From: a virus
Lineage: Duplodnaviria > Caudoviricetes
Strand: one strand, 5' to 3'
Length of the DNA stretch: 64,000 nt
IMG/VR virus record: IMGVR_UViG_3300034061_004620
Part shown: piece by piece, positions 11,817 through 50,609 of the stretch
Layout of the letters: each line of letters opens with the position of its first letter
Numbering within the stretch: position 1 is the first letter of the stretch
Position numbers and translations under genes: made by a program
The notes under the pieces: generated by a model
Databases searched by the model: none
What the model was told of the DNA's origin: nothing
What the model saw: only the letters and a program-made list of their open reading frames with translations

Positions 11817-12191
11817 ATGAAAATCAAAGACATTATCATTGAGCAAAAAGGTGTGTTAAAAGATCGGGCACGATTGGCCACACGTGGGTTAAATAAGTTC
11901 TCAGACGCAAAAAAATGGAACGGCGATTACACACTTTATAGACTTGGTTTGGCGTTGGCGTCCACAGACGGTAAAGAAATGCCAGATGTTGACGAAGAAT
12001 CTTGGATTGGTAAGTGGAAACTGGCAGCACCCTATACTCAAGCTGAGCAAGACATGCTAAACTTGGCATACAAAGCAGTGGATGCAAATGTTGAAGATAT
12101 GAATCACGGAGATATGAAAAGTCAAGAATGTCACACTGTGAACAAATCCAGTCCGGTAGCTGTAAACAAAAAGAACAAATATGGTGTTTGA
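11817..12191 (+). CDS. Hypothetical protein with a capsid-targeting-like leader (MKIKDIIIE)
   Basis: 124 aa ORF coupled to gp13; N-terminus ends in I-I-E. Confidence 0.55.
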   Translation: MKIKDIIIEQKGVLKDRARLATRGLNKFSDAKKWNGDYTLYRLGLALASTDGKEMPDVDEESWIGKWKLAAPYTQAEQDMLNLAYKAVDANVEDMNHGDMKSQECHTVNKSSPVAVNKKNKYGV

Positions 12192-20101: not shown

Positions 20102-20599
20102 ATGACCAAAAAACTCTCAGAACTCTTTGATCTTCCTACTAATTTGCCTTCAACAGAATCTGCTGAATCAAACGAAGCTTTGAAAGCCATTGCTGACAAC
20201 AAAGAAATAATTGCCCGAGTAGACGAAGCTATAGACAAAATTGATATAGCATTGCCTACAGTGCGTGATCTCGAAGCCAGTGACCAAGAAATGGACGAAC
20301 TTGCAAACTTGGCTAAAGACAAATTTAACGATCTGATGGATTTAGGCATGAACATGGATCCAAGATTTGGCGGAGTGGTATTTCAAACAGCAGGCACATT
20401 GCTGGGTCATGCTATCACAGCCAAAACAGCCAAAATGGACAAAAAGCTACGTATGGTACAACTACAGCTACAGAAGGCCCGACTGGACCACCAAGTGAGC
20501 AAAGACGCACCAGAGGATCGTCCTATAGATGGACAAGGCATTGTGCTTGACCGTAATGCATTACTGGAACAGATTCTCCAAAAGAACAAAAACACATAA
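20102..20599 (+). CDS. Probable terminase small subunit
   Basis: 165 aa helical protein; DQEMDELA..FNDLMDLG..R..VFQTAG.L..AI.AK..K..KKL pattern and R..LL..I tail like T4-type TerS; next to gp4. Confidence 0.55.
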   Translation: MTKKLSELFDLPTNLPSTESAESNEALKAIADNKEIIARVDEAIDKIDIALPTVRDLEASDQEMDELANLAKDKFNDLMDLGMNMDPRFGGVVFQTAGTLLGHAITAKTAKMDKKLRMVQLQLQKARLDHQVSKDAPEDRPIDGQGIVLDRNALLEQILQKNKNT

Positions 20600-20624: not shown

Positions 20625-21245
20625 ATGAAAAGTCTCCACGATTATATAGCAGAACGAAACTCAAACTACAGTTTTAGGATCAAGGTAGCAAAACAAAACC
20701 CCAAAGATATCATGGAAGAAATCAAGAACGCTCTTGATGCTTACGAACTTGTAGATATCACCACACCAAAAAGTATGCCGGTACAAGAGCATAGAGAATT
20801 TCCCAAGTGGGGTGCATGCGAATGTTGGCAATTTGAAGCCACAGTGGCATATCCTACTACTACAGTACAAATCGCACAATTACTTAAAGAACGCACAGGC
20901 ATGCAGGCCGAGTGGGTTTGTGTGTACGGCAAACAACAAGCAGATCAAAACGATTATGCCGAAGCTTATGGCAAGGATCACGAAGGCGCACTATTGTTAG
21001 ACGGAGAACTCAAAGACGTACCCGGTGGGCAAGATCTTGTGGCAGAAAAGCGCAAAGACAGCTTATTAAAAGAACTTGATAAGAAGAGTCCATTACTAAC
21101 AGGCCCTGGCGAACCAGACTTAGTGACTACCCACGCAAAAGAAAGAACCAAGCCAGCACAAACAACTAATGCACTTCCGCAAGGTACTAAGAGTCCTGTA
21201 GGTAGCCAACAAAACAAATTACCCCCAATTAAAGGAAGAAAATAA
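20625..21245 (+). CDS. Putative internal head protein with CTS-like leader MKSLHDYIAE
   Basis: Start moved from 20529 to ATG 20625 (SD and late promoter); the leader resembles T4 IPII/IPIII MKTYQEFIAE. Confidence 0.6.
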   Translation: MKSLHDYIAERNSNYSFRIKVAKQNPKDIMEEIKNALDAYELVDITTPKSMPVQEHREFPKWGACECWQFEATVAYPTTTVQIAQLLKERTGMQAEWVCVYGKQQADQNDYAEAYGKDHEGALLLDGELKDVPGGQDLVAEKRKDSLLKELDKKSPLLTGPGEPDLVTTHAKERTKPAQTTNALPQGTKSPVGSQQNKLPPIKGRK

Positions 21246-22222
21246 TGAGCAACAATATCTATGACATCTTGAAAAAGATGCAACGCCTTGAGTCACCCAA
21301 GCAGGTTCTTGCAGAAGGTAAAAAAGCAAAACCTGATTTTGCAGACCTTGACAAGGATGGTGACAAAAAAGAGCCTATGAAAAAAGCTGCCAAAGAAAAA
21401 AACAAAGGCGCAATCGCAGAAGCAGTTGCTCGAGTTGAAAAGAATTTAGCAGAAAAGTACATGAGCTACAAGAAACGACTGGGCGAAGAGTCTGACATGA
21501 TTAGAAAAGTTATTCCGGTCAATGTCATTGATGGCCCTGGCGGTTACGAAGAAGCACAAAAGCGTATTAAAGATCATGAATCATCAAAAGTAAAGAGACA
21601 AGAAATGCCAGGTAAAGAGTTACCTCCAGTAGACGATAGATCTCGACCAGCCGACAAGCCCAAGACTAAAGAAGTAGATGAAAGTGGCTTACAAGCGTAT
21701 CTTGGCAAAAAGAAGTATGGCAAAGAAGGTATGCAGGCATTACAGAAAGCAGGCCGCGAAGGTGCAAGTAAAGAAAAAATGGCCAGCATTCGTGCCCGTC
21801 ATGACAAGATGGATGAAGACGCATACAATGAAGACATGCTGAGTCCTAAGCAACAAAAAATTGCTCGTATGGCCGGGGATCCTAAAAAAATTGACGCCAA
21901 CGATCTAAAAGCTTTGCGAGCCGGTAAGAACAAAAAAGCCGAAGGCAATGCTTTTAGTGGCGCTTTAGATGCAGCAAGAGACGCTGGCAAATCTGAATTT
22001 GAAGTCGACGGAAAAAGCTATAAAGTAAAAGAAGGCTGGGACGAAATGCTAAAAGCACAAAAAGAACGTAGCGGTCCACAACCCAGTGGCGGATCAGGCA
22101 TTAAGCAAGGCAAACGTTATGGTGGCGGCGCACAAACCGACGAACCAGACACAGATAACGAAACAGGTGAAGTAGCTAAAAAAGGCCGCGGTCGCCCTAA
22201 AAAAGATAAATTTGCAAAATGA
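21245..22222 (+). CDS. Putative internal head / prohead-core polyprotein-like protein (DxDxDG motif, C-terminal AT-hook)
   Basis: Lys-rich modules separated by LAE/IAE/VDE/MDE/VKE; KPDFADLDKDGDKKE; KKGRGRPKK. Confidence 0.55.
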   Translation: MSNNIYDILKKMQRLESPKQVLAEGKKAKPDFADLDKDGDKKEPMKKAAKEKNKGAIAEAVARVEKNLAEKYMSYKKRLGEESDMIRKVIPVNVIDGPGGYEEAQKRIKDHESSKVKRQEMPGKELPPVDDRSRPADKPKTKEVDESGLQAYLGKKKYGKEGMQALQKAGREGASKEKMASIRARHDKMDEDAYNEDMLSPKQQKIARMAGDPKKIDANDLKALRAGKNKKAEGNAFSGALDAARDAGKSEFEVDGKSYKVKEGWDEMLKAQKERSGPQPSGGSGIKQGKRYGGGAQTDEPDTDNETGEVAKKGRGRPKKDKFAK

Positions 22223-25200
22223 AAATTCGTGAAATAGCCAAACAGTCTTCATTACAAGAAGGTGCAATATCTAACAAAGTGTTACCTGGTTTGAGTTTTG
22301 CTGACGCTGGTATCAGAGTGGCTGAAAAAGATTATCCCGGTGCCGCCATTGCTGGCACAGCAGCTGGGCTAAGTCTAATACCAACAATACCCACACAAGC
22401 TGCCAGTATTGGTTTAGAGGCATTTAATCAATTACGCGACGAAGCTGCGCGACGCGGTGGTTGGGGAAATCTTGGCAGAGATATGATGAAGTCTGTCAGG
22501 GATGGTGATTTTGATCATATCCATATGCTACCAGAAGAATTTGACAAATTAGATCAATTAGAACGAGCAGGCAAACTTGACGAAGGTGGTTTAACAAGTA
22601 TTCCAGGCTGGATAGCCAAATACGGTGATGATGCTGTTCGGTGGTTAAAAACTGTCGGAAGACGCGATAAACCAGATGCTCCTGCTTCTAAGCCAGAAGT
22701 ACCAGATGCCTCGGTACCTTCTAAGAAGCCATACACCAGAGACGAAGATTTGCCTATTGTGGGGCGAGATACACCTACTCCACCACCGGCCTCAACTCCT
22801 GTAGAATTACCAAAACAAAAACGATTTGAATCAGACAAAGCATATTTAGACAGATTACAAAAAATGGGTCCTGAGTTTGTGCAAAAGAAAACACAAATGG
22901 ATCAAGCTCTGATTAGTGCTAATCAAGCAAAAGAGTTAAGTAAAGGACCAGTTAGAAAAGGATTAGAAACAACTGGAAAATTCTTAGTAAGGAACCCAAT
23001 AACATGGGGTGCAGGGGCATACGGAGGATACGAAGCAGCTAAAGAATACGGACCAGATATAGGACGAAAATCGATTGAATGGTGGCGACAAGGTCCTGAA
23101 AAAGAAATTCTCCAAAAAGCTCCTGAAGGCGAATTGCTGTCAGACATTATAAAAGGTGTAACAGCACAACCTCCAGCCAATGCACCGGCTCCGGTGACAC
23201 CAGAAAAACAGCAAGAACTCCCACCGCATATAGATCCTGCCACCGGCAAAACAAGGGACCAAGGCGCCAGACTTGATGACAAAGAAAAAACATTGACTGA
23301 GAAATATCAACAGTTTCTCAATGACGATAAAAAGCCGCAATACACCAAGGAACAGTTTATTCAATTGGCTGCAAAATATGCCAAGCAGTATGATGTTCCA
23401 TTGCCTGTAGTCTTACATGCCATGCGTAAGGAAACTGGTGCGTATGATGCAAACACCGCAGCCACAGTTCTTGGACCCAAAACCAAATATGGACAAGCAG
23501 TTGGTGTCATGCAGTTGATGCCATCATTCTTTAAAACATTAAAACCTGAAGATCTAACAAATCCAGATCGAAACATTGAAGCTGGTACAAAATTTTTAGC
23601 AAACTTGTACAAGACATACGGCAGTGCCGAAGCAGCCCTGGCAGCATACAACGCCGGACCATATAATAAAAAATTTAAGGCTTGGCTTAAATCCAATGAT
23701 CCAAAAGATTTACCGGCACAGACCAGAGAATATCTCTACGGCGATCCACGAAAGAAAACTGTTGGCTATGTTGATGATGTAGCACAACAAGTTGCGCTAT
23801 TGAATCCACCGAGCACCAGAGATAAAGTTGTAAAGGTAGCTACAGACGTATTGGCTGCTGCCACAGGATCAGGCGACGCACAAGCAGCAAACAGCAAAAA
23901 ATCTAAAGCTGAAGTCATCAGCGGCCCTCAATATCCACCTCACGGTACACCAATAGAGAAAGTACAACTACCTGGTCATTGGACCAATCCTGTATTGAAA
24001 CCTTTAGATGGTAGAGTACACATGCAGTTGCAAGATTTAAGTGGCGAGTTTAAAGCGGCCTTAGATAAAGCCATGGCCGATTATGCCAAAGACAATCCAG
24101 GAGTTACAATTACTGTAACCAGCGGAGTGAGAACTCCCGAAGATCAAAAGGCTTTGGCCAAGCGAGCAGCAATAGAATATGAAAAAATGAAAAGGGGAGA
24201 GCCGAACAATTATATACCTGCCTCAAAAGAATTAGCCGGACATGCAGGATATGCCATTGACATGAACACTCCTGATCTGGTAAAATTTTCCAAATGGTTG
24301 CGAAAAAACGATCCATATGACAAAAAAAATCCAAGCAACACAAAATACGGATTGCAAGACGGATTCGAAATAGCAGACCGTGTGCATTTACAATTGAGAG
24401 GCTACGAGCAATTAGATTCAGAAAAGGCCAGAAGAGCATACAATAAAAACTTGCCTATAGATAAACAAATTCTAACTGCCTCTGATTGGGAATCGTATGT
24501 ACAACGCACAGAAGCCGAAAAACTGGCTTTAGCGCAGCCTAAAGACAAGAAACTAACCGATCCCGGACTTGGTGGTGCTCCAGAAGCCCAGGCTGATACA
24601 ACATCAAAAGCAGATAACAGTAAACCTCTCAAATTTCCTTCTATTAGATCAGATATACCATCCGTTGATTACCAGTCTCAAGGTGATGACACACCGGCTA
24701 AATCAGCTGAAAAGAAAGCAGAAAAGCCAGCTGATAAACCTGCCGACAAAGACAAATCTAAAGCAAAAACTCGCGTTACAACAGATGCAACGGGAAGAGA
24801 AACAACATATACTCAAAATGAAAAAGGCCAATGGGTCGATCCTCGAGGCAATATTATGCCCGCACCCGAAAAACCAGGATCAAGAAAAGATCTTGATATC
24901 ACTGACAAAGGCGGAGACCCCAGTGCAGCAGATTTAGAAAAATCAAGAAACATAACCGGTCGTAAAGATCCTCTCATCGATCCTGACACTGGTTTTCCTA
25001 CCACAGAAAAAGCCTTACGCGACAAACTTACTCAGCGTGCCGCCGACGAAAAGGCAGCAGCAGAACGAGAAGCCAAGCGTATTGCTGACTTAGAAAAAAT
25101 TCAACGAGATGCAGAAGCCAGGAAAAAGGCCGAAAAACCAGCCGACAAAGAAGCAGGTAAAGCAGATGCAGGCACAGGTCTTGCTGGCACAGACACAGGC

Positions 25201-26040
25201 AAAGACAAAGGTAAAGCAGATAAACAACAACGTGTGCCAGCTGCACCTGCTGCTGAAGTTCCTGCTGCAGACGCAAAAGATAAGTCTGCTAAAATAAATG
25301 TACGTAAAGAATTTGAAAAGGCCTTTGCAGCAGCAAGAGCCGCACAGGCGTTAAAGACCGGAAAAGGCAGTGGAGGAACATTCACATGGACAGATCCACG
25401 AACTGGTAAAGAAAGTACATATACTACAGACTACGGTGATGAGGTCAAAGATAAAAAGTCAGTAAAGGTGGTACCTAAAGCTGAACCTAAAGCCGAACCA
25501 AAAGCCGATGCTGGTGCTGACACATACTGGGTAGATCCAAGACTATCAAAAGTGCCATACGATGTTATACGCAAGCAGATTAAACCTGATTATACAGTGG
25601 ATGCAGATCCGGATGCAATAAAAGTTCCACGAGCTACAGAACCTGATACAGATACAAAATTGCCATCACAGACACGTAGTGTGAGCGAGCCAGACCGTGC
25701 CAATGTATTACGTTCCACAGACGGCACCCCAGTTACATCAGGCACAGGCGAACCGTGGGGTACCGGCACCAGTACCAAGAAAGATATAGAACGTGCCAAG
25801 GATGAATTGCAGAAAAAAATTGATGATGAAAAATTCAAAAAAGAATTGCAAAAAATTAGTCCTGATTTGTCAGAACCCGAACAAGGTAATAGATGGATTG
25901 ACAAATGGAATCAAGGCATAGAAGCACTAACTGGTAAAGAAAGAATGACACCCGATGACATGAACAGGATACGTGTTCCAGAATCGGTAAATACAGAACT
26001 GAATGACATATTATGGTTGGCTGGAAGGGTAAAAAGATAA
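22219..26040 (+). CDS. Large virion protein with SLT lytic transglycosylase and M15-type peptidase domains
   Basis: SLT ~23341-23790 (MRKET..AVGVMQLMP..NIEAGTKFL..ALAAYNAGP); M15 ~24020-24410 (VTSGVRTPEDQ..AGHAGYAIDM..DRVHLQL). Confidence 0.75.
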   Translation: MKIREIAKQSSLQEGAISNKVLPGLSFADAGIRVAEKDYPGAAIAGTAAGLSLIPTIPTQAASIGLEAFNQLRDEAARRGGWGNLGRDMMKSVRDGDFDHIHMLPEEFDKLDQLERAGKLDEGGLTSIPGWIAKYGDDAVRWLKTVGRRDKPDAPASKPEVPDASVPSKKPYTRDEDLPIVGRDTPTPPPASTPVELPKQKRFESDKAYLDRLQKMGPEFVQKKTQMDQALISANQAKELSKGPVRKGLETTGKFLVRNPITWGAGAYGGYEAAKEYGPDIGRKSIEWWRQGPEKEILQKAPEGELLSDIIKGVTAQPPANAPAPVTPEKQQELPPHIDPATGKTRDQGARLDDKEKTLTEKYQQFLNDDKKPQYTKEQFIQLAAKYAKQYDVPLPVVLHAMRKETGAYDANTAATVLGPKTKYGQAVGVMQLMPSFFKTLKPEDLTNPDRNIEAGTKFLANLYKTYGSAEAALAAYNAGPYNKKFKAWLKSNDPKDLPAQTREYLYGDPRKKTVGYVDDVAQQVALLNPPSTRDKVVKVATDVLAAATGSGDAQAANSKKSKAEVISGPQYPPHGTPIEKVQLPGHWTNPVLKPLDGRVHMQLQDLSGEFKAALDKAMADYAKDNPGVTITVTSGVRTPEDQKALAKRAAIEYEKMKRGEPNNYIPASKELAGHAGYAIDMNTPDLVKFSKWLRKNDPYDKKNPSNTKYGLQDGFEIADRVHLQLRGYEQLDSEKARRAYNKNLPIDKQILTASDWESYVQRTEAEKLALAQPKDKKLTDPGLGGAPEAQADTTSKADNSKPLKFPSIRSDIPSVDYQSQGDDTPAKSAEKKAEKPADKPADKDKSKAKTRVTTDATGRETTYTQNEKGQWVDPRGNIMPAPEKPGSRKDLDITDKGGDPSAADLEKSRNITGRKDPLIDPDTGFPTTEKALRDKLTQRAADEKAAAEREAKRIADLEKIQRDAEARKKAEKPADKEAGKADAGTGLAGTDTGKDKGKADKQQRVPAAPAAEVPAADAKDKSAKINVRKEFEKAFAAARAAQALKTGKGSGGTFTWTDPRTGKESTYTTDYGDEVKDKKSVKVVPKAEPKAEPKADAGADTYWVDPRLSKVPYDVIRKQIKPDYTVDADPDAIKVPRATEPDTDTKLPSQTRSVSEPDRANVLRSTDGTPVTSGTGEPWGTGTSTKKDIERAKDELQKKIDDEKFKKELQKISPDLSEPEQGNRWIDKWNQGIEALTGKERMTPDDMNRIRVPESVNTELNDILWLAGRVKR
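25988..25993 (+). promoter_or_regulatory. Possible late promoter TAAATA inside the end of the SLT/M15 gene
   Basis: GGTAAATAC, 48 nt before ATG 26042. Confidence 0.4.
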
Positions 26041-26041
26041 A

Positions 26042-29000
26042 ATGAACATGCGAGAACTAATAAATCTAATAGAGGCACCGGCTCCTAAACAAGGTGTTAC
26101 TGGACAAAAACTTGCTCAAACAAGTGGCGGCCAATTTATGAATCGAGCCGATAGAACCAATCAAGCCAAAGTTGATGCAGCGTTAGGCCCAGGATTCAAA
26201 GCAGGAAGTGCAGCAGCCAATCAGGCATTAGCTAAAAAATTCAGTCAGCCACAAGCTGTACCGGCAGCAAACACAGCAAGTGCTCAACAATCAGCAGCAT
26301 TAGACACTTCCAAGGCAAATGCAATTGGTGGGCAACAGGCAGCAACCACGGCAGCAGCACCAGAACCAGACACAAGAGGTGCAGCAGCGATGGCAAGTAG
26401 ATCGGCCCCGGCCGCTGCAAATACAGAGCCAGTTCAAGCAGCAGCTCCTGCTCAAACTTCAGATCAGATTGCAACCGCTGCACTAAATGCACAAGATTCA
26501 ACACCACAAGCTGACACAAGAGGTGCAGCAGCAATGGCCAGTAGATCAACAAGTACTCCTGCTCAAACTTCAGATCAGATTGCAACCGCTGCACTAAATG
26601 CACAAGATTCAACACCACAAGCTGACACAAGAGGTGCAGCAGCAATGGCCAGTAGATCAACAAGTACTCCTGCTCAAACAACTCCGGATCAAATACCAAC
26701 TCAAACAGCAACAGCTCAAAGTATAGGTGCTACTAATTTGCAAGGCGAAAATCCAGCAGCACCAGCACAACAAAATACAGCAGCACCTGCTCAAGCAGGC
26801 GGATATGCTCAGAGTGCCACTGCCGCCACCAATAATCCTGCACCCAAGAGTGACTATCAGCCTGTAGCTGGAAGTTCTAATTTAGTCTCAAGAACCTCCG
26901 ATAAAATTGCAGCAGACGCAAAAGCTGGGCCTGGTGGGCAAAATCCTGCAACAAAAAGTTATGCCAGTTTTGGTGATTTTGCCAGTGCTGTAGGAAACAA
27001 AGTTAAAGGTTTTTTTGGTGGCAATCAACCAGCACCAGACGCAACTGCAGGTACTGGTCCTAATTTAGGTACAGGAACATTAGGCAGCACACCAAATGCA
27101 CAACAGCCGCCTGCATTTGTGCCGTCAGCTACAACAGCCGGCACCCCAGCTGCGTTTGGTAAAGTTGCCGAAGCTGATGCGCCAGTGAATTCCGCACCTC
27201 AGCAGCCGGCAGCAAAAACTCAAAAAGCACCAAGCATGTACGATGTTGACAAGGCCAACAGAAAAGAAATAGCAAGTCAATTTGACCCTAATTCAACTTA
27301 TGTAAATCCCCATGACAAAGATACACGAGCGTCTGCTCCAGGATCAAAGGCAGTAAACACCATGGCTGACTTTGAAGAAGATGTTGATCATGCATTGGCA
27401 GAGATGATGCGCTTGAGTGGTTTAACTTTGAGTGAAAAAGCACCACCAGGCAAGAAGGCCGAACGCATGGTTAAACACATTAAAAAAGGTTATGCCAAGG
27501 ACGGTAAACTCACAGACAAAGAAAAGTCAATTGCATTTGCAACTGCATGGAAACAGCACAACAAAGAAAAGGTAAACGAAGGCATGGACATTATGTTAGA
27601 CGAAGATGGGCATACACTAAAACATATCGTTAATAGATTCAAACATGAAACTAAAAATTTCATGAATACAGGATTTATGGCAGAGAACTTGTATGATGCA
27701 TTATATGATTATTATCTGGATAGAGGCGACATGCCTTACGGTATTGCCAAGGCAAGAGAAGGTGATCCATACGAGTGGGTAGAAGAACACTTCTATGCAG
27801 ACATGGGCAGTCAAATGAGTGAAGGTGCTGTAGCAGAACAAACTGTGGACCCACTGAGTGAATTAGCACGTTTGGCTGGATTGTCAGAAGACGGTCCTGG
27901 ATCTGCTATGCTAAATGCCCCAAAGAAAGACACTGATTCATTTGCAGACAGAATGAGAAGTGCAGGAAAAGAAATTAGGCGTACGATTGATCGCGCAACA
28001 TTGCCAGCTGCAATGAGAGCAGATTATGATAGAATTGAAGCAGAAAAAGAAAGAGCCTCAGCTCCTGTAGCAACACCAGCAGTCGCTAAAGCTGATGCAT
28101 TTAAAGATGCAATGGGTTCTGGATCCAACAAAGCACAAGCAGATGACAAATTGAAAGAAATGGGCGACAGTCCATTGGCAAGACTCAATCAAATGCCACA
28201 AACTAAAGGACAAGAACCAAGTTCGGGTGCAGCGAGCTCGTTCGCACCACGTGAGCGCGAGCGTGTGGTTAGCCCCAAGATTGACAAATACGAAAAAGAC
28301 AAAGAACGTGCAGAAAAAGCCAGAAGAGATATTGTTGATAGAGAAAGTCCAGATGCTAATACATTTGGTCGTAAAATAGGCAAAGCAGTATCAGAACCAG
28401 TTGCAGCAATCAAGAGTGCATGGCACGGTGCAACAGATGCCTGGGATCATACTATGGGCAATGATACAGCCCCAGATCCAAAACCACCAGTTAGTGTTGT
28501 TAACAAAAGAGACTGGAAAGGTGACAAGGATAATCCTGCACTAAAAGAAAATGACGAGTTAAATCGTATGCGTAAAATTGCCGGACTACAGGAATGTGGA
28601 GATATGGGCATGGAACGCGATCATATGCAACAAAAAGATCGATTGAATGTTACCACAAACATGAGCAGTGATGGTACCAAGGACGTCACTATCAATGCAC
28701 AAGGTGACGCCGCAGAAGATCTACTGTCTATGTTGAAACTGGCAGGTATGGAAAGACATCATCAGCCTACAATGGTCATGATTGACCGCGATGAAGAAAT
28801 GATGGAACGAGAAGAAACTCCTGTACCTGATGATGGTAATGTATTAGGTGGTATGGGAGATTTTGAACAAATAGATGCAATAGACGAAGCCAAGAAGAAG
28901 CGTATTACACGTCATAGCAACACACCCGACGAAGAATATCAAACCGTAGATAGTATTCTACGTCAAGGCAATGATCTCAACAGAGAAAAACGCCAGTACA

Positions 29001-29575
29001 AGAAAGAATACCCCGGCGACAATCCAATGTCTGAAAGCATGCTTGATCAAGACTTAAACGACATCCTTGAGAGCATCTTGATTCGCGAAGAACCTATTCC
29101 AACTACTACAGATCCTGAGACAGGACGAGTAAAAGCAACATTACCCTCAAATTTTTTCCGTCCTGGTAAAAAACGTGATCGTGCCAGTCAAGAGATACCA
29201 ATGGAACCTGAATCGCCAGAATCTCGTGTAACTGGGCCACGCAGTATGAAAATACCTGGTGAGCGAACAGGTACAGAAAACTTTGGTAAAGACAAAGAAG
29301 TTGACGAAGGTTGGGAAGATGTAAAAACAGGTGTATCTAACTTTGTTGGAGATCTTTTTAACACAGACGACAGTATACGCAGAAGAAGCGGGCAGTTTCG
29401 TGATCTTGAAGCTATGCAACAAAAGTATAAACCTGGAACTCCAGAGTATGATCAATTGGAAATGCGTAAGACCAAGCAAAAAGAAAGGTATTACGGAGAC
29501 CAAGGTGAAGTGGTAGGTAAAGACGGCGAACCAATTAAAGTATTACCACCTGATCAATGGAAAGGTGGCAAGTGA
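26042..29575 (+). CDS. Large low-complexity putative internal head protein (leader MNMRELINLIE, four LxxLAG-type helices)
   Basis: 1177 aa, Ala/Gln/Pro-rich N-terminal half, many (L/V/M/I)xE sites. Confidence 0.55.
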   Translation: MNMRELINLIEAPAPKQGVTGQKLAQTSGGQFMNRADRTNQAKVDAALGPGFKAGSAAANQALAKKFSQPQAVPAANTASAQQSAALDTSKANAIGGQQAATTAAAPEPDTRGAAAMASRSAPAAANTEPVQAAAPAQTSDQIATAALNAQDSTPQADTRGAAAMASRSTSTPAQTSDQIATAALNAQDSTPQADTRGAAAMASRSTSTPAQTTPDQIPTQTATAQSIGATNLQGENPAAPAQQNTAAPAQAGGYAQSATAATNNPAPKSDYQPVAGSSNLVSRTSDKIAADAKAGPGGQNPATKSYASFGDFASAVGNKVKGFFGGNQPAPDATAGTGPNLGTGTLGSTPNAQQPPAFVPSATTAGTPAAFGKVAEADAPVNSAPQQPAAKTQKAPSMYDVDKANRKEIASQFDPNSTYVNPHDKDTRASAPGSKAVNTMADFEEDVDHALAEMMRLSGLTLSEKAPPGKKAERMVKHIKKGYAKDGKLTDKEKSIAFATAWKQHNKEKVNEGMDIMLDEDGHTLKHIVNRFKHETKNFMNTGFMAENLYDALYDYYLDRGDMPYGIAKAREGDPYEWVEEHFYADMGSQMSEGAVAEQTVDPLSELARLAGLSEDGPGSAMLNAPKKDTDSFADRMRSAGKEIRRTIDRATLPAAMRADYDRIEAEKERASAPVATPAVAKADAFKDAMGSGSNKAQADDKLKEMGDSPLARLNQMPQTKGQEPSSGAASSFAPRERERVVSPKIDKYEKDKERAEKARRDIVDRESPDANTFGRKIGKAVSEPVAAIKSAWHGATDAWDHTMGNDTAPDPKPPVSVVNKRDWKGDKDNPALKENDELNRMRKIAGLQECGDMGMERDHMQQKDRLNVTTNMSSDGTKDVTINAQGDAAEDLLSMLKLAGMERHHQPTMVMIDRDEEMMEREETPVPDDGNVLGGMGDFEQIDAIDEAKKKRITRHSNTPDEEYQTVDSILRQGNDLNREKRQYKKEYPGDNPMSESMLDQDLNDILESILIREEPIPTTTDPETGRVKATLPSNFFRPGKKRDRASQEIPMEPESPESRVTGPRSMKIPGERTGTENFGKDKEVDEGWEDVKTGVSNFVGDLFNTDDSIRRRSGQFRDLEAMQQKYKPGTPEYDQLEMRKTKQKERYYGDQGEVVGKDGEPIKVLPPDQWKGGK
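26445..26679 (+). repeat. Exact in-frame tandem repeat, 111 bp x ~2.1 (37-aa unit)
   Basis: Unit starts CTCCTGCTCAAAC at 26445, 26556 and 26667; encodes PAQTSDQIATAALNAQDSTPQADTRGAAAMASRSTST. Confidence 0.95.
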
Positions 29576-30633
29576 TGAAAACGTTTCGCGAATATCTCAA
29601 CGAAGCAGAACTGACAGAAGGAAATCCTGCTGTTGGGGATATTTTTGAGTTAGAAATAGCCAGAGACGAAACTTTGCTCGAAACTTATATTGTTGATGTG
29701 TTTGAGGATGGAATAGTATTAGAAGCAGACGACACCATGATGAGAATTTTAACGCATGTTGGATATATAACAGAAGATTCAAACATGCCCACTGCTCGAG
29801 ATTCTATCAGTCCAATACATTCAAATGTGAACAGAGACAAAAGCTCCGATGACGACCTCATGGACAAAGACTCAGGTGCCACACCACCTGCTCGTCCTAC
29901 ACGCGATGCGGTAGACACTAAGCCGCTAACCGAGCCAAAAAACAAAAAAGATCCCAAAGACTACATGGTGCATGAGGCGCCCGAAGGATGGGGACAAGAT
30001 ACCATGACCAACAAAGACGGTTCGGTGATGAAATACAACCCCGATGATGACAGTTACAGCATGGTATCTCCTCCTACGGTAAAGCCTACTAAAACGTCAA
30101 TGTCGGTGATTGATACTCATAGATCACAAGATCGCAGCTCGTCTAAAGGAGATAGTACACACAAGCAGGAATTTACATCTGCTTCGTTTGCAAGAGATCC
30201 CAAAACTGGCGCAGGCGATTATTACATATCTCGATCAACAGATGATGATTACGACGATGACTTTCAGCAAGATGTAAGTGCCCCTTGGATGAACTATACG
30301 CAAGCCAAAGCAAAATATGATTCAGATCTTATGTTTGGTAAAAAAACAGCCATGCCTCAAGGGCCAATGAGTCAGTTCAGAGCACCAACCAATGAAGCCA
30401 AATATCAAGGTCGTGAAGTTCCGTTAGGCAAGAAGATGAAGGGCGATGTTAAGAAGAGTAAAGTGTATGTAAGAGGACCCAAAGGTAATGTAGTTAAAGT
30501 GAACTTTGGCGATCCTAACATGACAATCAAAAAGTCAAATCCAGCCCGTCGTAAAAGTTTCAGAGCAAGACACAATTGCGCCAATCCAGGACCAAGATGG
30601 AAAGCAAGGTACTGGTCATGTAGGAGTTGGTAA
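29575..30633 (+). CDS. Putative internal head protein (leader MKTFREYLNE) with a basic C-terminal RRKSFRARHNC..ARYWSC domain
   Basis: Start placed at ATG 29575 overlapping the upstream TGA; strongest CTS-like leader in the window. Confidence 0.65.
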   Translation: MKTFREYLNEAELTEGNPAVGDIFELEIARDETLLETYIVDVFEDGIVLEADDTMMRILTHVGYITEDSNMPTARDSISPIHSNVNRDKSSDDDLMDKDSGATPPARPTRDAVDTKPLTEPKNKKDPKDYMVHEAPEGWGQDTMTNKDGSVMKYNPDDDSYSMVSPPTVKPTKTSMSVIDTHRSQDRSSSKGDSTHKQEFTSASFARDPKTGAGDYYISRSTDDDYDDDFQQDVSAPWMNYTQAKAKYDSDLMFGKKTAMPQGPMSQFRAPTNEAKYQGREVPLGKKMKGDVKKSKVYVRGPKGNVVKVNFGDPNMTIKKSNPARRKSFRARHNCANPGPRWKARYWSCRSW

Positions 30634-31418
30634 TGACAGATCCAAGATTTTTTAGACAGTATTTAGAGATATTAAAAGAAGGCCCTCCTGCAGGTGTTGG
30701 TCCTAATGCACCTATAAAACAACCTGTGCAGCAGCCAGCTAATACCAGTCAAGAACCAAGCCAATTTCAACAGGCCAAGGATGCAGTAGGGCAACAATAT
30801 CAAAATTACAAAGATATATCGGGACAACTTGATCAAGGTGTACAACAAGGATTAATCAGCAAAGATGTGGCCGATAAAACAAGAAGTTATGCACAAGGTT
30901 CAATGTTAAGAGGTGGTTGGGAGGCAGGTAAAGCAGCAATGCAAGGTCGTGATCCATCATCGGCCTATGTAGGTAGCTTGATTAGATCAATGGGTAATTT
31001 GGCTGCTGATTCTGGTCTTGATGATGCTGCAAAAAAACTTGGACAATTTGCAAGTCAGTATCGAGGTCCTAATGCCAAAGATATAACAAAAGATCCCGCA
31101 TACCTAAAAGCATCACCGGAACAACAAGCACAAGCCCGTAAAGATTTTGAAGCAATTAAATCATTGCCTGATGATGAATACAATTATATTTTTGGTGGCA
31201 ATGCGTTTAAGGAACGTGGCGCACAGGCAGCTCAAGTTGGTCAAGACATGATTGATCAAAAAGATTGGGGTACAGGTCGTAGCGCAGGGTTTTCACCAAA
31301 AGCAAATGAACTTTTTGGATTAGATCCAACTCGTCAGGCAACTGATGCAGAAATGCAAGCGGCAGCAACAGGTACCAACGAAGAATTAGATAGACTCAAA
31401 CAACTTATTAGAAGATAA
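30633..31418 (+). CDS. Putative internal head protein (leader MTDPRFFRQYLEILKE)
   Basis: TAATG coupling; Q/G/A-rich; ends EELDRLKQLIRR. Confidence 0.55.
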   Translation: MTDPRFFRQYLEILKEGPPAGVGPNAPIKQPVQQPANTSQEPSQFQQAKDAVGQQYQNYKDISGQLDQGVQQGLISKDVADKTRSYAQGSMLRGGWEAGKAAMQGRDPSSAYVGSLIRSMGNLAADSGLDDAAKKLGQFASQYRGPNAKDITKDPAYLKASPEQQAQARKDFEAIKSLPDDEYNYIFGGNAFKERGAQAAQVGQDMIDQKDWGTGRSAGFSPKANELFGLDPTRQATDAEMQAAATGTNEELDRLKQLIRR

Positions 31419-31873
31419 TGAGCGATCCAAGATTTTTTAGACGATACTTAGATATTCTTGACGAACAACCTGTCACTGCAAACATTGATGACTACACAAG
31501 CGTGACTGTTGATCCTACAGCAAAAAATCTTGCAATGCAAACCAAGATTGGGGACTTGGATCTCAAAGCAACGCATGACCGTTCCGCAATCCCGGCCAAT
31601 CAAATTTCAGCCAATTACCAAGTGGACCCTAAATTAAAGGTTGGCGGCACACACACTCAAGCAGGATATAAAGGACAAATGACTCCTACCACTCAAATTT
31701 CAGCCAACTACGACGATCCTGATGTTGGTAAAGCTGATCTACAAGTAGATAAAGGTGCCATGTTCCAGGGTGCAGGAAAAAATATTCAGCAAGGAAATCC
31801 CGCTATCGTAACTGCCAAATTTACAAACCCACAAGGCCAAACAGCCACTTACAATACAAACAGAAACTTATAA
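31418..31873 (+). CDS. Putative internal head protein (leader MSDPRFFRRYLDILDE), beta-strand-rich body
   Basis: Leader nearly identical to that of the preceding gene; internal repeat TQISANYQVDP / TQISANYDDP. Confidence 0.55.
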   Translation: MSDPRFFRRYLDILDEQPVTANIDDYTSVTVDPTAKNLAMQTKIGDLDLKATHDRSAIPANQISANYQVDPKLKVGGTHTQAGYKGQMTPTTQISANYDDPDVGKADLQVDKGAMFQGAGKNIQQGNPAIVTAKFTNPQGQTATYNTNRNL

Positions 31874-31882
31874 GGAAAATCA

Positions 31883-32317
31883 ATGAAAAAATTATTAGCA
31901 ATTCTATTATTAGCACCTACTCTTGCACTTGCTCAAAAACAACCACAAGGTGTTATGTATGATGCACAAATTGTGAGAGTAAACGATGGCGACACAGTAG
32001 TCATTGCTGCTCCATTCTTGCCAGCTCCACTCAAGCCCGAGTTGGCTGTGCGTGTTTATGGAGTGGATACTCCTGAAAAAGGCCATAGAGCCATGTGTCC
32101 AAGCGAAGCACAAAGAGGTGAAGCAGCCACAGCGTTTACAAAAAATGCAGTGGCCAAATCAGTCAAGCGTCAGGTAGTGCTTTACGGTTGGGACAAGTTT
32201 GGTGGGCGAGTATTAGGCGACATGATTCTTGATGGACAAAGCTTGCGAGCTCAACTTATTGCCAATGGATACGCAAGAGAGTATTATGGTGAAGCCAAAC
32301 AGTCATGGTGTAACTAA
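31883..32317 (+). CDS. Staphylococcal-nuclease (thermonuclease) family protein with Sec signal peptide
   Basis: VNDGDTV, VRVYGVDTPE, DKFGGRVLG, LIANGYAR; N-terminal MKKLLAILLLAPTLALA; SD AAGGA. Confidence 0.9.
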   Translation: MKKLLAILLLAPTLALAQKQPQGVMYDAQIVRVNDGDTVVIAAPFLPAPLKPELAVRVYGVDTPEKGHRAMCPSEAQRGEAATAFTKNAVAKSVKRQVVLYGWDKFGGRVLGDMILDGQSLRAQLIANGYAREYYGEAKQSWCN

Positions 32318-32372: not shown

Positions 32373-32540
32373 ATGAAATGGATTTTTGTTCTAATGGTGT
32401 TAGTGGTTGATGATGGAGTATGGAGAGCATGGAACAGTTATCCTACTTTAGCAGAATGCGACGAAGTTATACAAGTGATAACTCATCATAGAGAAGAAAA
32501 AATTAAAGCCTATTGTTTGGCCAGGCAAGTAGATGAATGA
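32373..32540 (+). CDS. Small hypothetical protein (55 aa, hydrophobic N-terminus, two Cys), missing from the ORF track
   Basis: MKWIFVLMVLVVDDGVWRAWNSYPTLAECDEVIQVITHHREEKIKAYCLARQVDE; overlaps the next start. Confidence 0.55.
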   Translation: MKWIFVLMVLVVDDGVWRAWNSYPTLAECDEVIQVITHHREEKIKAYCLARQVDE

Positions 32541-32742
32541 TATTGAACAATTACGAGTATTAGCTGGTATTAGTAACCGTGCAGTGATGCAGGAGTACAA
32601 AGGCTTTCCGGGTAGTAATATCTCTGTTACCGGAAATGAAAAAGGCGAACTCATGAAAAAACATGACATTCGCCCCGGTACTGATGCTTGGTTTAAACTT
32701 TGGTTCAGCAAGCCATATTTAACTGGTGAACGGCCAATATGA
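32533..32742 (+). CDS. Small conserved phage protein with N-terminal EQLRVLAGI motif
   Basis: 69 aa; K.ELMKKHDIRPGTDAWFKLWFSKPYLTGE. Confidence 0.65.
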   Translation: MNDIEQLRVLAGISNRAVMQEYKGFPGSNISVTGNEKGELMKKHDIRPGTDAWFKLWFSKPYLTGERPI

Positions 32743-34176: not shown

Positions 34177-34190
34177 AAGTAATTTATATG
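34174..34190. promoter_or_regulatory. Overlapping divergent late-type promoters between two start codons 11 bp apart
   Basis: Plus strand TAAGTA-6 nt-ATG (terL); minus strand TATAAATT-4 nt-ATG (HNH). Confidence 0.55.
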
Positions 34191-35756
34191 AAAACCAATG
34201 ATACAACTATTATAAAGAGTCCGTACCAAAAGGTCAACTTTTCTGAGGATCAAATTGTAGAGTTTATGCGATGTGCTGATCCTGAATCGGGACCAGAATA
34301 CTTTATGAGCAACTATTTCTACATTCAGCACCCGGTTCGGGGAAAAATGCTATATCAACCTTTTGAGTATCAACGGAAACTTATAGATACTTATCACAAT
34401 AATAGATTTAGCATCAGCCTGATGCCTCGACAAACCGGCAAAACCACAAGTGCCGCAGGATACTTGCTTTGGTTTGCTATGTTTAGACCAGATTCAACCA
34501 TATTAATTGCAGCACACAAGTATACCGGTGCCCAAGAAATCATGCAACGTGTTCGTTATGCCTACGAACTATGTCCAGACTGGATCAGGGCAGGTGTTAC
34601 CAGCTATAACAAAGGATCAATTGATTTTGAAAATGGAAGTCGCATTGTAAGCCAAACAACAACAGAGACTACCGGCCGAGGTATGAGTATTACCCTACTA
34701 TACTGTGACGAGTTTGCATTCGTTAGACCCACAATTGCCAAAGAGTTTTGGACTTCAATATCACCGACACTCAGCACTGGAGGTAAAGCAATTATTACCA
34801 GTACACCTAATAGTGATGAAGATCAATTTGCGTTTATATGGAAACAGGCAAATAAAACCATTGATGAGTTTGGAAATCCACGAACAGATGGCTTGGGCGT
34901 AAATGGATTTAAAGGATATCAGGCCAGCTGGTGGGAGCATCCAGATAGAGACCAACAATGGAAACAAGAAGAGATTGGTCGAATTGGGGAAGAACGTTTC
35001 AGACGCGAGCACGGGTGTGAGTTTTTGATCTATGACGAAACCTTGATTAACTCAATTAAACTGTCAGAACTGGTGAGTAAAGAGCCGCTTGAATTACAAG
35101 GACAAGTAAGGTGGTTTCAAAAACCGCAGAGAAACAAAACATATGTGATTGGACTTGATCCCAGTTTAGGAACAGGAGGCGACTATGCAGCAATTGAAGT
35201 TTTTGAATTGCCTACGATGGTACAAGTGGCCGAGTGGCAGCACAACAAGACACCTGTGCAAAGACAAATCGCTATTCTTAAAGAAATTTGTGAGTACATA
35301 TACGATACCGTTGGTACTACCAATGACATATACTATAGTGTAGAGAATAACACCTTAGGTGAAGCAGCCTTGGTAGTTATAGCAGAATTTGGCGAAGAAA
35401 ATATTAAAGGAACGTTTTTAAGCCAACCTATAAAAGCCGGGCAAGCAAGACTTCATAGAAAAGGATTTACAACTACAAATAAAACAAAATTAGCAGTATG
35501 CGCCAAATTGAAAAATTTAATTGAAAACAACAAAATGACACTAAACAGTAAAAATTTAATTAGCGAGCTAAAAACATTTGTAGCCAGTGGCGCAGGATTT
35601 GCAGCCAAAATTGGAGAAACGGACGATTTGGTATCAAGCACTTTATTGGTACTTAGAGTAATACAGGCTTTGCAAAGTTTTGATGCAGAGCTTGATGAAA
35701 AATTACGTGACAAAACTGATGACTACTTGGCACCAATGCCATTTATATTGGTATGA
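34188..35756 (+). CDS. gp17: Terminase large subunit, T4 gp17-like
   Basis: Walker A MPRQTGKTT, Walker B LLYCDEFAF, STPN, nuclease GLDPSLGTGGDY and TDDLV. Confidence 0.97.
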   Translation: MKTNDTTIIKSPYQKVNFSEDQIVEFMRCADPESGPEYFMSNYFYIQHPVRGKMLYQPFEYQRKLIDTYHNNRFSISLMPRQTGKTTSAAGYLLWFAMFRPDSTILIAAHKYTGAQEIMQRVRYAYELCPDWIRAGVTSYNKGSIDFENGSRIVSQTTTETTGRGMSITLLYCDEFAFVRPTIAKEFWTSISPTLSTGGKAIITSTPNSDEDQFAFIWKQANKTIDEFGNPRTDGLGVNGFKGYQASWWEHPDRDQQWKQEEIGRIGEERFRREHGCEFLIYDETLINSIKLSELVSKEPLELQGQVRWFQKPQRNKTYVIGLDPSLGTGGDYAAIEVFELPTMVQVAEWQHNKTPVQRQIAILKEICEYIYDTVGTTNDIYYSVENNTLGEAALVVIAEFGEENIKGTFLSQPIKAGQARLHRKGFTTTNKTKLAVCAKLKNLIENNKMTLNSKNLISELKTFVASGAGFAAKIGETDDLVSSTLLVLRVIQALQSFDAELDEKLRDKTDDYLAPMPFILV

Positions 35757-36310: not shown

Positions 36311-37762
36311 ATGCGTGAATTAGATAAAATATCAGCTGCTTTATTTGACAAAATACGTGCTCGCTTTGATCATGTGAATATTGGCGACGAAAATGCCCAA
36401 AGAGTTACAGACCCAGAAAAAGCAAGATTTCTAAATTTTGATTACATCAGCGAAGATGGTGAGAATTTTGGTAATGTTACTATCAGTCTAATAGATGAAG
36501 ACAGTTTAAAAATCTACTTTGGCGCAAATATTACCGAAGCACTGGACGAAGAACAAGAAACAGAATGGTATAAATTTTTGCGTGGGCTCCGCGAGTTTGC
36601 AAGACGTAACATGTTGAATTTTGATGTTAGGGATATTAATCGTAGTAATTTAGATCTTAAAGACATTAAACAACAGAGTGTATCAGACGCCACTTACGAT
36701 AAAGAAGAATTGGCCATTGCCGAAGGAAGATTGTACGGACACGGCAATAACCGCAGAGTAAGTTTCGGTGATGTAGGCGAACACAAACTTATTATCAAGC
36801 ACAGAGATCAAATTGATCCAGAACGGCACGGTGCAAGAGCCAGACAAATAGAACATGTGTTCATCGAAACTCCAGTTGGAGAAAGATTCCTATTAGATCA
36901 TACCAATTTACATGGTGCCAGAGCTACAGCCAATCATTTACGCCACGGTGGTAACATTGGCGACGAAGGTAGTCAATTAATTAACGAAATGGTCAAAGAA
37001 ATGGCCAGCATGCGCCATTTTGTGCGTTCGATGAAAAATAGAACATTTGAAGATGCTGAAACTTCGGGCATGGTGGAAGCAGCCATTTATCGCTACAACG
37101 AAGTTAAAAATAATTTGAAACGTTTTCAAGGTCGAAAAGGCCATGAATTACTAATAGACATGTGTGATCGCCGTTACAATGACATGGACGAAACAGTGGA
37201 TGTAGACTCATTGCGCGAGCGTTTTGTGAAGAAAATTTACGATGATAGGTTCAACGAAGCACTACCATATGTTTATCGTGCATACAAAAACAAACAAAAA
37301 ATGGACACACCAATGACAGTGGAATTTGAGTCTTGGGCAAATGAAATTACTGAACAGACTTGGGATGAGGATAATGACGATAGAGATGAACAAGATTTAA
37401 CAGTGCTCATGCAAACTCCTATCGCAGTAGGTGTAGATGCATCAGATGGTATAGCTGCTATTTCTAACATCAATTTTTTACAAGACGATGAATTAAAACA
37501 AGCACTATTAAAATTGAGTCAGGTTCAAGGTCCAGATGCTGATGCAAGACGTACAATAGTTGGCTGGCTGGCTGCAAATGGAGAAACTGCATTAGCGAAC
37601 CAATTTATGCAAGTACTACAACAACAAAATACTAACACACAGCCAGCACCACAGCAACCGGTTCCACCACCTCAACCAGTAGGCGCAACCACAATGGATC
37701 AACCGGTAGTACAAGAAGATTTAGGATTTTTACGCAAGTTGGCAGGTTTGGTTAAAAAATAA
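36311..37762 (+). CDS. Conserved hypothetical late protein ending in VVQE-DLGFLRKLAGL
   Basis: 483 aa; late promoter; C-terminal LxxLAG motif shared with the putative head proteins. Confidence 0.65.
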   Translation: MRELDKISAALFDKIRARFDHVNIGDENAQRVTDPEKARFLNFDYISEDGENFGNVTISLIDEDSLKIYFGANITEALDEEQETEWYKFLRGLREFARRNMLNFDVRDINRSNLDLKDIKQQSVSDATYDKEELAIAEGRLYGHGNNRRVSFGDVGEHKLIIKHRDQIDPERHGARARQIEHVFIETPVGERFLLDHTNLHGARATANHLRHGGNIGDEGSQLINEMVKEMASMRHFVRSMKNRTFEDAETSGMVEAAIYRYNEVKNNLKRFQGRKGHELLIDMCDRRYNDMDETVDVDSLRERFVKKIYDDRFNEALPYVYRAYKNKQKMDTPMTVEFESWANEITEQTWDEDNDDRDEQDLTVLMQTPIAVGVDASDGIAAISNINFLQDDELKQALLKLSQVQGPDADARRTIVGWLAANGETALANQFMQVLQQQNTNTQPAPQQPVPPPQPVGATTMDQPVVQEDLGFLRKLAGLVKK

Positions 37763-50429: not shown

Positions 50430-50609
50430 ATGACAAAAATTTATCTGGCCATGGCCGAAATGCAAAACGGCAACCGTATCTTTGAACGTGCATATCTTAC
50501 TCAAGAGCGTGCCGAGCAAGCGTGTCAAGAGATGATAAAAGATATTACGGAAAACACTGACTGGAAAGTTGTTCCTGTTGTTGAAGAGTTGGAGTTAGTT
50601 GATGAATGA
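50430..50609 (+). CDS. Small hypothetical early protein (59 aa), missing from the ORF track
   Basis: MTKIYLAMAEMQNGNRIFERAY..LELVDE, behind the promoter and overlapping the next start. Confidence 0.65.
   Translation: MTKIYLAMAEMQNGNRIFERAYLTQERAEQACQEMIKDITENTDWKVVPVVEELELVDE

Follow-up and report, generated by a model that had tools for sequence, protein, structure and literature searches.

Seven consecutive open reading frames (ORF1-ORF7) on the + strand of an uncultured phage genome, at positions 20625-31873 of the IMG/VR record IMGVR_UViG_3300034061_004620, probably encode cargo proteins that are targeted to the phage head and processed by a protease. The whole record, a stretch of 64,000 nt in which 78 ORFs were counted, is called the window here; the block covers 11 kb of it and encodes 3745 amino acids (aa) in total. 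This reading is built on a sequence grammar that is established here, on its conservation, on protein bodies purged of cleavage motifs, and on protease, scaffold, and capsid sites in close relatives. Multiple internal cuts in the block proteins are proposed with less confidence. A preliminary description of this DNA had presented the entire block as protease-cut polyproteins. ORF2, ORF4, and ORF5 do look polyprotein-like, whereas ORF3, ORF6, and ORF7, whose bodies are purged of sites, look end-trimmed.

N-terminal leaders

A search with ORF1 retrieved 52 related IMG/VR loci (44-100% identity) in which synteny is kept. In these loci the leaders of six ORFs, ORF2-ORF7, are conserved in five classes, and the bodies behind them range from 98 to 1489 aa in length. 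Every class ends in [L/I/V/M]-x-Glu, and the residue that follows is mostly G, A, S, Q, or E. The Glu at P1, the position directly before the predicted cut, is invariant save for five distant ORF2-type sequences, and P3 is L, I, or V. The ORF2-type leader is 24 aa long. The other classes follow the patterns MK[IA]x[DE]I..E (ORF3 type, class c3), M.M[RK].L..L[FI]E with a following A (ORF4 type), MK[ST][FL][RK][ED]Y[LI].E (ORF5 type), and M.DP[RK]F[FL]R.Y.D[IM]L.E (ORF6 and ORF7 type, class c67). All 18 aligned homologues of ORF7 retain its leader. Among pairs of proteins that share a leader, the bodies are similar in 85 of 210 pairs for c3 and in 39 of 171 pairs for c67; the two leaders are thus attached to largely unrelated bodies and behave as portable modules.

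The capsid-targeting sequence (CTS) of T4 internal proteins was used for comparison (sequence from PMC8442874). In this sequence, targeting depends on positions 4 and 7, and processing on positions 8 and 10 (PMC9026906; PMC8442874). The T4-type pattern, which consists of a hydrophobic or aromatic residue at positions 4 and 7, L or I at position 8, and Glu at position 10, is matched position by position by ORF5 and ORF1. ORF2, ORF3, ORF4, ORF6, and ORF7 have longer or variant leaders that end in [LIV]xE. The leader of ORF5 is the closest to the T4 CTS, with identity at positions 1-3, 6, and 10 and conservative replacements at positions 4, 7, and 8. It has aromatic residues at 4 and 7, L/I at 8, and E at 10.

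Under a strict working definition of a leader, with the expectation taken from internal Met positions, 10 of the 78 window ORFs carry a leader where 1.6 are expected, and six of these ten lie in the block. A 137-kb contig of a relative has 15 strict leaders against 3.4 expected. The N-termini quoted in the preliminary description are all exact, including two from outside the block, MKIKDIIIE (11817) and MRDLLNIILNE (48083). The former is a c3-type leader on a 124-aa ORF (Table 1) that resembles gp333 of the Pseudomonas jumbo phage PA5oct, a 73-aa virion protein that is encoded beside the portal gene and begins with MKINDIITE followed by G. The ORFs at 35753-36304 and 50602-50874 also pass the strict definition (MKITAVDDKKDLFLVE and MNERIQETLDILQE, respectively) and may represent cargo or chance. 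A genome-wide comparison of leaders with virion status by mass spectrometry in PA5oct was dropped as non-specific, because a loose leader expression matches 62 of the 469 ORFs (13%) of this AT-rich genome, which has no comparable expansion.

The shared N-termini could alternatively be tags for another system, such as substrates of radical-SAM/SPASM enzymes, or DNA-level elements for recombination or translation coupling. We regard this as very improbable. The block has no radical-SAM gene next to it, whether in the window or in relatives, and the substrates would reach 1273 aa. Moreover, the match to the T4 CTS, the protease motif, and the N-terminal sites of scaffold and capsid proteins would be left unexplained.

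Internal cleavage motifs

The motif [LIVM]xE occurs 57 times in the seven ORFs, compared to 41 times in local shuffles (z 2.75). Local shuffles were used in place of whole-protein shuffles because the Glu and hydrophobic residues of ORF4 are concentrated in its C-terminal half, which inflates a whole-protein excess. For the control motifs [LIVM]xD and [AGS]xE, the counts in the block match expectation (z -0.63 for [AGS]xE). By ORF, [LIVM]xE is enriched in ORF5 and ORF4, not significantly so in ORF2, and depleted in ORF3.

The Glu residues of internal motifs are selectively conserved. In alignments of IMG/VR homologues, uncorrected for phylogeny, they show 74% retention (n=35) compared to 36% for other Glu residues (n=114; Mann-Whitney p 1e-9). 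Glu residues with a hydrophobic residue at -1, -3, -4, +1, +2, or +3 show 41-53% retention (p 1e-2 to 5e-5). Conservation of xE at module boundaries in homologues, on which the preliminary description had staked its reading, is borne out by these values and by the P1/P3 signature of the mobile modules described below.

The sites are distributed differently among the proteins. In ORF2, the six sites listed previously are all present together with a seventh, RLGE at residue 81, and six of the seven are each retained by 22 or more of the 29 homologues. In ORF3, six sites lie within the first 361 aa and three within the last 117 aa, and the region in between (aa 362-1156), which includes both hydrolase domains, contains 43 Glu residues and no site (6.4 expected, P 0.0009). 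Nine sites occur in aa 1-134 of ORF5 and none beyond. ORF6 and ORF7 have one site each, in the leader, and the ORF7 body lacks Glu altogether. The picture of strings of 30-60 aa modules therefore applies to ORF2 and to parts of ORF4 and ORF5, and does not hold for the block as a whole.

Glu- and Leu-rich, partly disordered proteins could yield such motifs by chance or as an artefact of composition, and the loose leader expression does match 13% of PA5oct ORFs and 20% of the ORFs outside the block in the related loci. Despite this, the explanation is largely excluded by the strict leader count, by the two control motifs, and by a position-specific P3/P1 signature and a cross-locus conservation that go beyond composition alone.

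Mobile basic modules

Two basic modules, one in ORF4 and one at the C-terminus of ORF5 (Table 1), recur across hundreds of viral contigs and show the cleavage-type signature most clearly. The ORF4 module, annotated as DUF6321 in one cyanophage record, is found in proteins of 200-1000 aa that are otherwise unrelated, and its place within them varies. Among the 47 distinct contexts upstream of it, Glu occupies P1 in 100% and one of L, I, V, M, and F occupies P3 in 79%, whereas hydrophobic residues reach 4-21% at P2 and P4-P7. Among cultured phages the module is confined to T4-like cyanomyoviruses, and the S-RSM4 protein that carries it begins with MKTFKQFREE. Modules are also found in new combinations: in two sequences, L207 and L220, ORF2-type modules are fused directly to the ORF4 module via VQE and MDE junctions. 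In the cyanophage P-HM2 (L237, 1000-1893), a 297-aa gene with this module lies between gp16 and gp17, so the gap between terS and terL, the genes for the small and large terminase subunits, may be an ancient common location of cargo genes of this kind.

The ORF5 domain occurs elsewhere as a stand-alone phage protein of approximately 87 aa with its own leader of 8-10 aa in a like style. In ORF5 and its homologues, the xE-A junction is retained at the boundary of the basic domain. Glu is present at P1 in 69% of 61 distinct contexts, and a hydrophobic residue (L, I, V, M, or F) at P3 in 64%, compared to 13-26% at other positions. The domain follows LEE in the T4-like phage HTVC008M and LDE in the Flavobacterium myovirus immuto. 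An AlphaFold2 model of the domain has five strands and two helices (predicted local distance difference test score, pLDDT, 78), and a fold search with it gave no PDB match. The domain is also present in podoviruses and in spindle-shaped viruses of Nitrosopumilaceae (archaeal), an unusually wide range of hosts and morphotypes for 80 aa.

Each predicted N-terminal fragment of ORF5 is acidic and its C-terminal module is strongly basic, which suggests that the basic domain may be masked by the acidic part until cleavage.

Another possibility is that only the leaders are removed, as in T4 internal proteins, which are cut just once (PMC8442874). The internal [LIVM]xE motifs would then stay uncut, and the polyprotein reading would be wrong. 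Approximately 80% of the head proteins of SPN3US are uncleaved, and the number of sites in ORF2 is not above expectation, both in keeping with this possibility. We nevertheless consider it unlikely, since the P3/P1 signature falls exactly at module boundaries in unrelated upstream contexts, the ORF5 domain occurs both alone with its own leader and fused with its xE-A junction kept, and the Glu of the motif is selectively conserved.

Head protease, scaffold, and a second tag

A gene for a Peptidase_S77 (gp21-family) protease is present in PA5oct and in three IMG/VR relatives; the relatives with S77 protease and scaffold include a contig whose ORF1 is 90% identical to that of the window. The head module of the latter encodes the protease, the scaffold, and the capsid protein in order. 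Its scaffold has an N-terminal I-N-E site and the C-terminus ...RLAGLK (RLAG[IL]K across relatives), and its capsid protein begins with a 19-aa segment that ends in L-L-E, followed by G. Equivalent N-terminal sites and an equivalent scaffold C-terminus are found in PA5oct.

The C-terminus of the scaffold has a motif in common with the block proteins. The motif [DE]Lxx[ILM]xx[LI][AS]G, called the LAG motif here, occurs five times in the block compared to 0.57 expected, and adjoins the cleavage motifs. One copy is located at the very end of ORF3, directly behind a VPE site, and the other four lie in ORF4, flanked by sites. The same motif makes up the scaffold C-terminus in relatives and PA5oct, and in one IMG/VR protein (L163) it is itself the N-terminal leader. 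Outside the block, a 69-aa ORF and a homologue of a virion protein carry it at the N-terminus and the C-terminus, respectively (Table 1). We infer from these positions that the LAG helix is a docking helix common to scaffold and cargo.

Individual proteins of the block

Pfam and PHROG scans of all seven ORFs revealed no homology to T4 IPI, IPII, IPIII, or Alt. A search of the ESM Atlas returned no named matches. ORF1 is a conserved protein with a CTS-like N-terminus. Of 44 homologues, 13 have Q, A, or S in place of its leader Glu10, and in PA5oct this position reads Asp-Ala. In the AlphaFold2 model, helix 4-11 is part of a ferredoxin-like domain (aa 1-115), which is followed by a disordered tail. 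A fold search returned generic ferredoxin-like matches and uncharacterised phage proteins only. Because Glu10 is often lost and the N-terminal helix is modelled within the folded domain, ORF1 cannot clearly be counted among the protease substrates. Targeting in T4 tolerates a non-cleavable residue at position 10 (PMC9026906). ORF1 may thus be targeted and left uncut, or its N-terminus may be no tag at all. The view of the CTS-like leaders as protease substrates in the preliminary description is supported for ORF2-ORF7 by their conservation in the 52 loci, but does not extend securely to ORF1.

ORF2 has a net charge of +17 and a conserved, AT-hook-like GRGRPKK at its C-terminus.

ORF3 combines a firm SLT lytic transglycosylase domain with a probable M15/VanY-like peptidase (Table 1). 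For the latter region, the Pfam VanY match (E 0.003, 17.7 bits) is below the cut-off of 25, and a PDB sequence search gave no match; an H-x6-D motif and a downstream His can be read in it. Nearly all ORF3-type homologues have a site approximately 18 aa from the C-terminus. ORF3 was also considered as a tape-measure protein, which was rejected because a tape-measure-like gene adjoins the portal gene in the relatives PA5oct and G002.

Genomic context

The window phage is, judged from its genes, an uncultured jumbo myophage of the T4 superfamily, distantly related to T4. The flanking genes (tail sheath, tube, gp15-, gp13-, and gp4-like genes, gp32, and the terminase large subunit, TerL) are of T4-superfamily type. 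The nearest cultured TerL is that of PA5oct (287 kb), with 54.7% identity, followed by those of Sinorhizobium phage Phosso and Agrobacterium phage Atu_ph07. Gene order in PA5oct matches that of the window for the adaptor, the deoxynucleoside monophosphate kinase, sheath, tube, tube paralogue, gp4-like gene, the gene resembling the terminase small subunit (TerS), the block position, and TerL. At the block position PA5oct has two genes only, gp282 and gp281, both virion proteins. Together with gp333 and gp279, they carry a flag for electrospray ionization tandem mass spectrometry (ESI-MS/MS) in the database record. A megablast search of the block against cultured phages gave zero matches.

Tail and neck genes (sheath, tube, gp4-like) surround the block, tape-measure and tail proteins often contain SLT domains, and mass spectrometry of PA5oct shows presence in the virion, not the compartment. 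The proteins could hence belong to the tail lumen, the baseplate, or the neck, with ORF3 as a tail-tip lysin and the N-terminal helices as elements for assembly or chaperone docking. Such a location outside the head seems improbable to us. It leaves unexplained why P1 Glu is invariant with L, I, or V at P3, why mobile modules have a boundary signature, why the ORF3 core is purged of sites, and why a motif is shared with the scaffold C-terminus. The tape-measure-like gene, moreover, is located elsewhere.

The preliminary description had claimed seven coupled, consecutive genes, and the coordinates agree: adjoining ORFs overlap by 1-4 nt or are spaced by 1 nt. No convincing + strand terminator was found within the block. 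ORF1 is preceded by an ATAAATA sequence 30 nt upstream. The window shows no enrichment of the T4 late consensus TATAAATA, which occurs once, on the minus strand, compared to 5.8 expected. The label of late genes is plausible from the context of the block.

The block varies in length. Among 16 sources with both borders present (15 loci and the window), it measures 2.7-10.6 kb, and that of the window is the largest. Homologues of the ORF2 type range from 217 to 1060 aa, those of the ORF3 type from 135 to 1489 aa, and those of the ORF6/7 type from 98 to 902 aa. In one locus (L084, IMGVR_UViG_3300047564_002282), ORF1 is 100% identical to that of the window, yet ORF2 has 421 aa compared to 325 aa, ORF3 1221 aa compared to 1273 aa, and ORF4 1044 aa compared to 1177 aa. 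These differences and a perfect tandem duplication in ORF4 (Table 1) point to a very rapid length change in the block genes.

Several neighbours were noted in addition. The gene directly after the block, at 31883-32317, encodes a homologue of staphylococcal nuclease (PF00565, E 2.8e-10) that has a Sec-type signal peptide and lacks a CTS-like leader; some relatives have a different signal-peptide protein of approximately 268 aa in its place. An HNH-type endonuclease ORF at 33646-34206 on the minus strand is antisense to and back to back with the start of TerL, and overlaps the end of a convergent 316-aa ORF. The tail-tube paralogue (17407-19071) has a Gly/Ala/Ser-rich C-terminal extension of approximately 330 aa, which all-against-all BLAST linked to ORF2, ORF3, and ORF4 by low-complexity similarity.

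Table 1. Positions of the block, its parts, and related features in the window
Feature	Position	Strand	Details
124-aa ORF outside the block, c3-type leader	11817..12191	+	Conserved in 25 loci; resembles PA5oct gp333
TerS-like gene (T4 gp16 position)	20102..20599	+	phrog_16202; position as in PA5oct and 52 IMG/VR loci; upstream border
ORF1, 206-aa conserved virion protein, CTS-like N-terminus	20625..21245	+	Homologue of PA5oct gp282
ORF2, 325 aa, Lys-rich, 24-aa leader	21245..22222	+	Leader and site conservation, module alignment
ORF3, 1273 aa, two cell-wall-hydrolase domains, leader, C-terminal LAG tail	22219..26040	+	Leader class c3
SLT lytic transglycosylase domain, ORF3 aa 383-487	23365..23679	+	PF01464, E 1.1e-16, 60.9 bits (cut-off 21.3)
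Probable M15/VanY-like peptidase, ORF3 approximately aa 601-741	24019..24441	+	phrog_2649 endolysin, E 2.7e-5; phrog_23178 peptidase, E 3e-4
ORF3 C-terminal tail, aa 1256-1273	25984..26037	+	Starts after VPE site; LAG helix, then basic end
ORF4, 1177 aa, 11-aa leader, 365-aa low-complexity region, then site-rich half with four LAG-type motifs	26042..29575	+	
Perfect 111-bp tandem duplication in ORF4 low-complexity region	26445..26679	+	Tandem Repeats Finder, 2.1 copies, 100% match
ORF4 basic module, aa 466-513, net charge +8, bounded by LSE and VNE	27437..27580	+	More than 587 IMG/VR matches
ORF5, 352 aa, T4-CTS-like leader, acidic N-terminal part, basic C-terminal domain	29575..30633	+	
ORF5 basic domain, aa 273-352, net charge +18, after TNE-A junction	30391..30630	+	More than 590 IMG/VR matches
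ORF6, 261 aa, 16-aa leader	30633..31418	+	Leader is its sole [LIVM]xE site
ORF7, 151 aa, leader paralogous to that of ORF6	31418..31873	+	Sole Glu is the leader P1
69-aa ORF, N-terminal LAG-type leader ending in VMQE	32533..32742	+	Conserved 3' of the nuclease gene in relatives
Terminase large subunit (gp17-type)	34188..35756	+	phrog_36964, E 5e-125; downstream border of the locus
483-aa virion-protein homologue ending in LRKLAGLVKK, like the scaffold C-terminus	36311..37762	+	phrog_13484

Proposed pathway and its implications

We infer targeting, cleavage, retention, and ejection or injection from the sequences described above. During head assembly, the CTS-like N-terminal leaders would recruit the proteins, with ORF1 as a doubtful case, into an assembling scaffold core of the T4 type. 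An ExxLxxLAG helix, which is also present at the scaffold C-terminus, would serve as a second tag. After closure of the shell, a gp21-type (S77) serine protease would cut after the Glu of [L/I/V/M]-x-E. ORF3, ORF6, and ORF7 would lose their end tags only; since the ORF3 core and the bodies of ORF6 and ORF7 are purged of the motif, these parts would remain whole. In ORF2, ORF4, and ORF5, cuts at several conserved sites would release small, very basic modules, namely those of ORF5 (+18) and ORF4 (+8) and pieces of ORF2. Acidic spacer pieces would be degraded or expelled, and the basic pieces would remain associated with the packaged DNA and probably leave together with the DNA and the wall hydrolase at infection.

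Several points weigh against this reading. The protease, scaffold, and capsid genes were seen in relatives only, as the window is without a head module, and the phage itself is known from metagenomic sequence alone. Processing is not mentioned in the PA5oct paper. Sites are in modest excess overall, and for ORF2 alone the excess is not significant. Retention of the motif Glu is uncorrected for phylogeny, and conserved amphipathic helices could account for part of it. In ORF1, the leader Glu lacks conservation and the N-terminal helix belongs to the modelled fold. Finally, no gp21-type protease is expected in podoviruses and spindle-shaped viruses, and the ORF5 domain is thus not diagnostic of head cargo. 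Weighed together with these points, head-targeted and protease-processed cargo is still the probable role of the block.

A broader and more tentative proposal, which we hold to be possible and rather doubtful at present, is that members of the T4 superfamily well beyond the T-evens (jumbo PA5oct-like phages, cyanomyoviruses, and pelagimyoviruses) load cargo by a common modular grammar, of which the window block would be the largest example among the sampled loci. The elements of this grammar may be portable leaders of the CTS type, a scaffold-mimicking LAG helix, and [LIVM]-x-E junctions. With them, small basic modules and enzymes unrelated to one another would be strung together, loaded into the prohead, and freed by the head protease. 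Among the products of the window block would be a double peptidoglycan hydrolase packaged in the capsid, and peptides that bind DNA and derive from acid-masked precursors.

If this holds, the cargo that abundant, mostly uncultured aquatic phages deliver with their DNA would become predictable from the leader, the LAG helix, and [LIVM]xE, and the three small internal proteins of T4 would be extended to kilobase-scale combinatorial precursors. The DUF6321-like module and the ORF5 domain, families without a function, would gain a context as processed head components. The tags and cut sites would also be natural means to load foreign proteins into phage capsids. In addition, the use of one docking helix by scaffold and cargo is suggested, which is testable in PA5oct or in a T4-like cyanophage.

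Comparison with known systems

The preliminary description had stated that no such system was known, which is too strong in view of the precedents of T4 gp22, gp67, gp68, and Alt, and of phiKZ and SPN3US (PMC9958956, PMC5694885, PMC9026906, PMC10052503). A literature search found no description of such a system in PA5oct-like phages. The closest parallel is that of the internal proteins of T-even phages, which are diverse and have only the CTS in common (PMC3012670). As in T4, a tag of approximately 10 aa that ends in L/I-x-E is placed at the N-terminus of hypervariable, partly basic bodies, in a phage family whose members related to the window have a gp21-type protease and a scaffold core. 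Unlike the T4 internal proteins, to which it has no sequence homology, the block has five leader classes instead of one, bodies of up to 1273 aa that include enzymes, conserved internal sites in several proteins, a second, scaffold-like LAG tag, and a location between terS and terL.

Other T4 head proteins resemble parts of the proposal. T4 Alt is trimmed by gp21 at both termini, at ITE-6 and LTE-619 (PMC5694885), which is similar to what is proposed for ORF3. T4 gp22, gp67, and gp68 are cut into small peptides (PMC9958956), as is proposed for ORF2, ORF4, and ORF5. Unlike these three, the multiply-cut proteins of the block carry mobile conserved basic modules, which are seemingly products to keep and not discarded scaffold.

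In phiKZ, 201phi2-1, and SPN3US, many large head proteins are packaged and cut after Glu by a gp21-related S80 protease, often at several sites within long propeptides of mostly 111-254 aa (PMC9026906, PMC10052503). The window phage is likewise a jumbo phage with many large proteins and Glu at P1. It belongs to a different lineage, however, and its relatives have an S77 and not an S80 protease. P3 is L, I, V, or M and not A, S, or G, [AGS]xE is not enriched, and the leaders are short and T4-like.

For two further systems the likeness is one of function or mechanism. The SLT protein of the T7 gp16 type is a peptidoglycan hydrolase inside the capsid that is ejected ahead of or with the DNA, in a podovirus that makes no use of a prohead protease. 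The same function is proposed for ORF3, which resembles gp16 by its SLT domain and differs from it by the additional M15-like domain and the protease-type end tags. Scaffolds of P22 and herpesvirus have C-terminal coat-binding helices, and encapsulins use cargo-loading peptides. The LAG helix could dock on the inner shell in a similar manner and then be freed by the maturation protease; its sequence is unrelated to theirs, and the likeness is of mechanism only.

Taken together, the block probably represents the CTS/gp21 logic of T4 in a variant form. It differs in the PA5oct-like and, by extension, T4-like aquatic phage lineage, the several leader classes, the scaffold-like second tag, the kilobase-scale precursors of mobile modules joined at cleavage motifs, and a putative capsid-borne double wall hydrolase.

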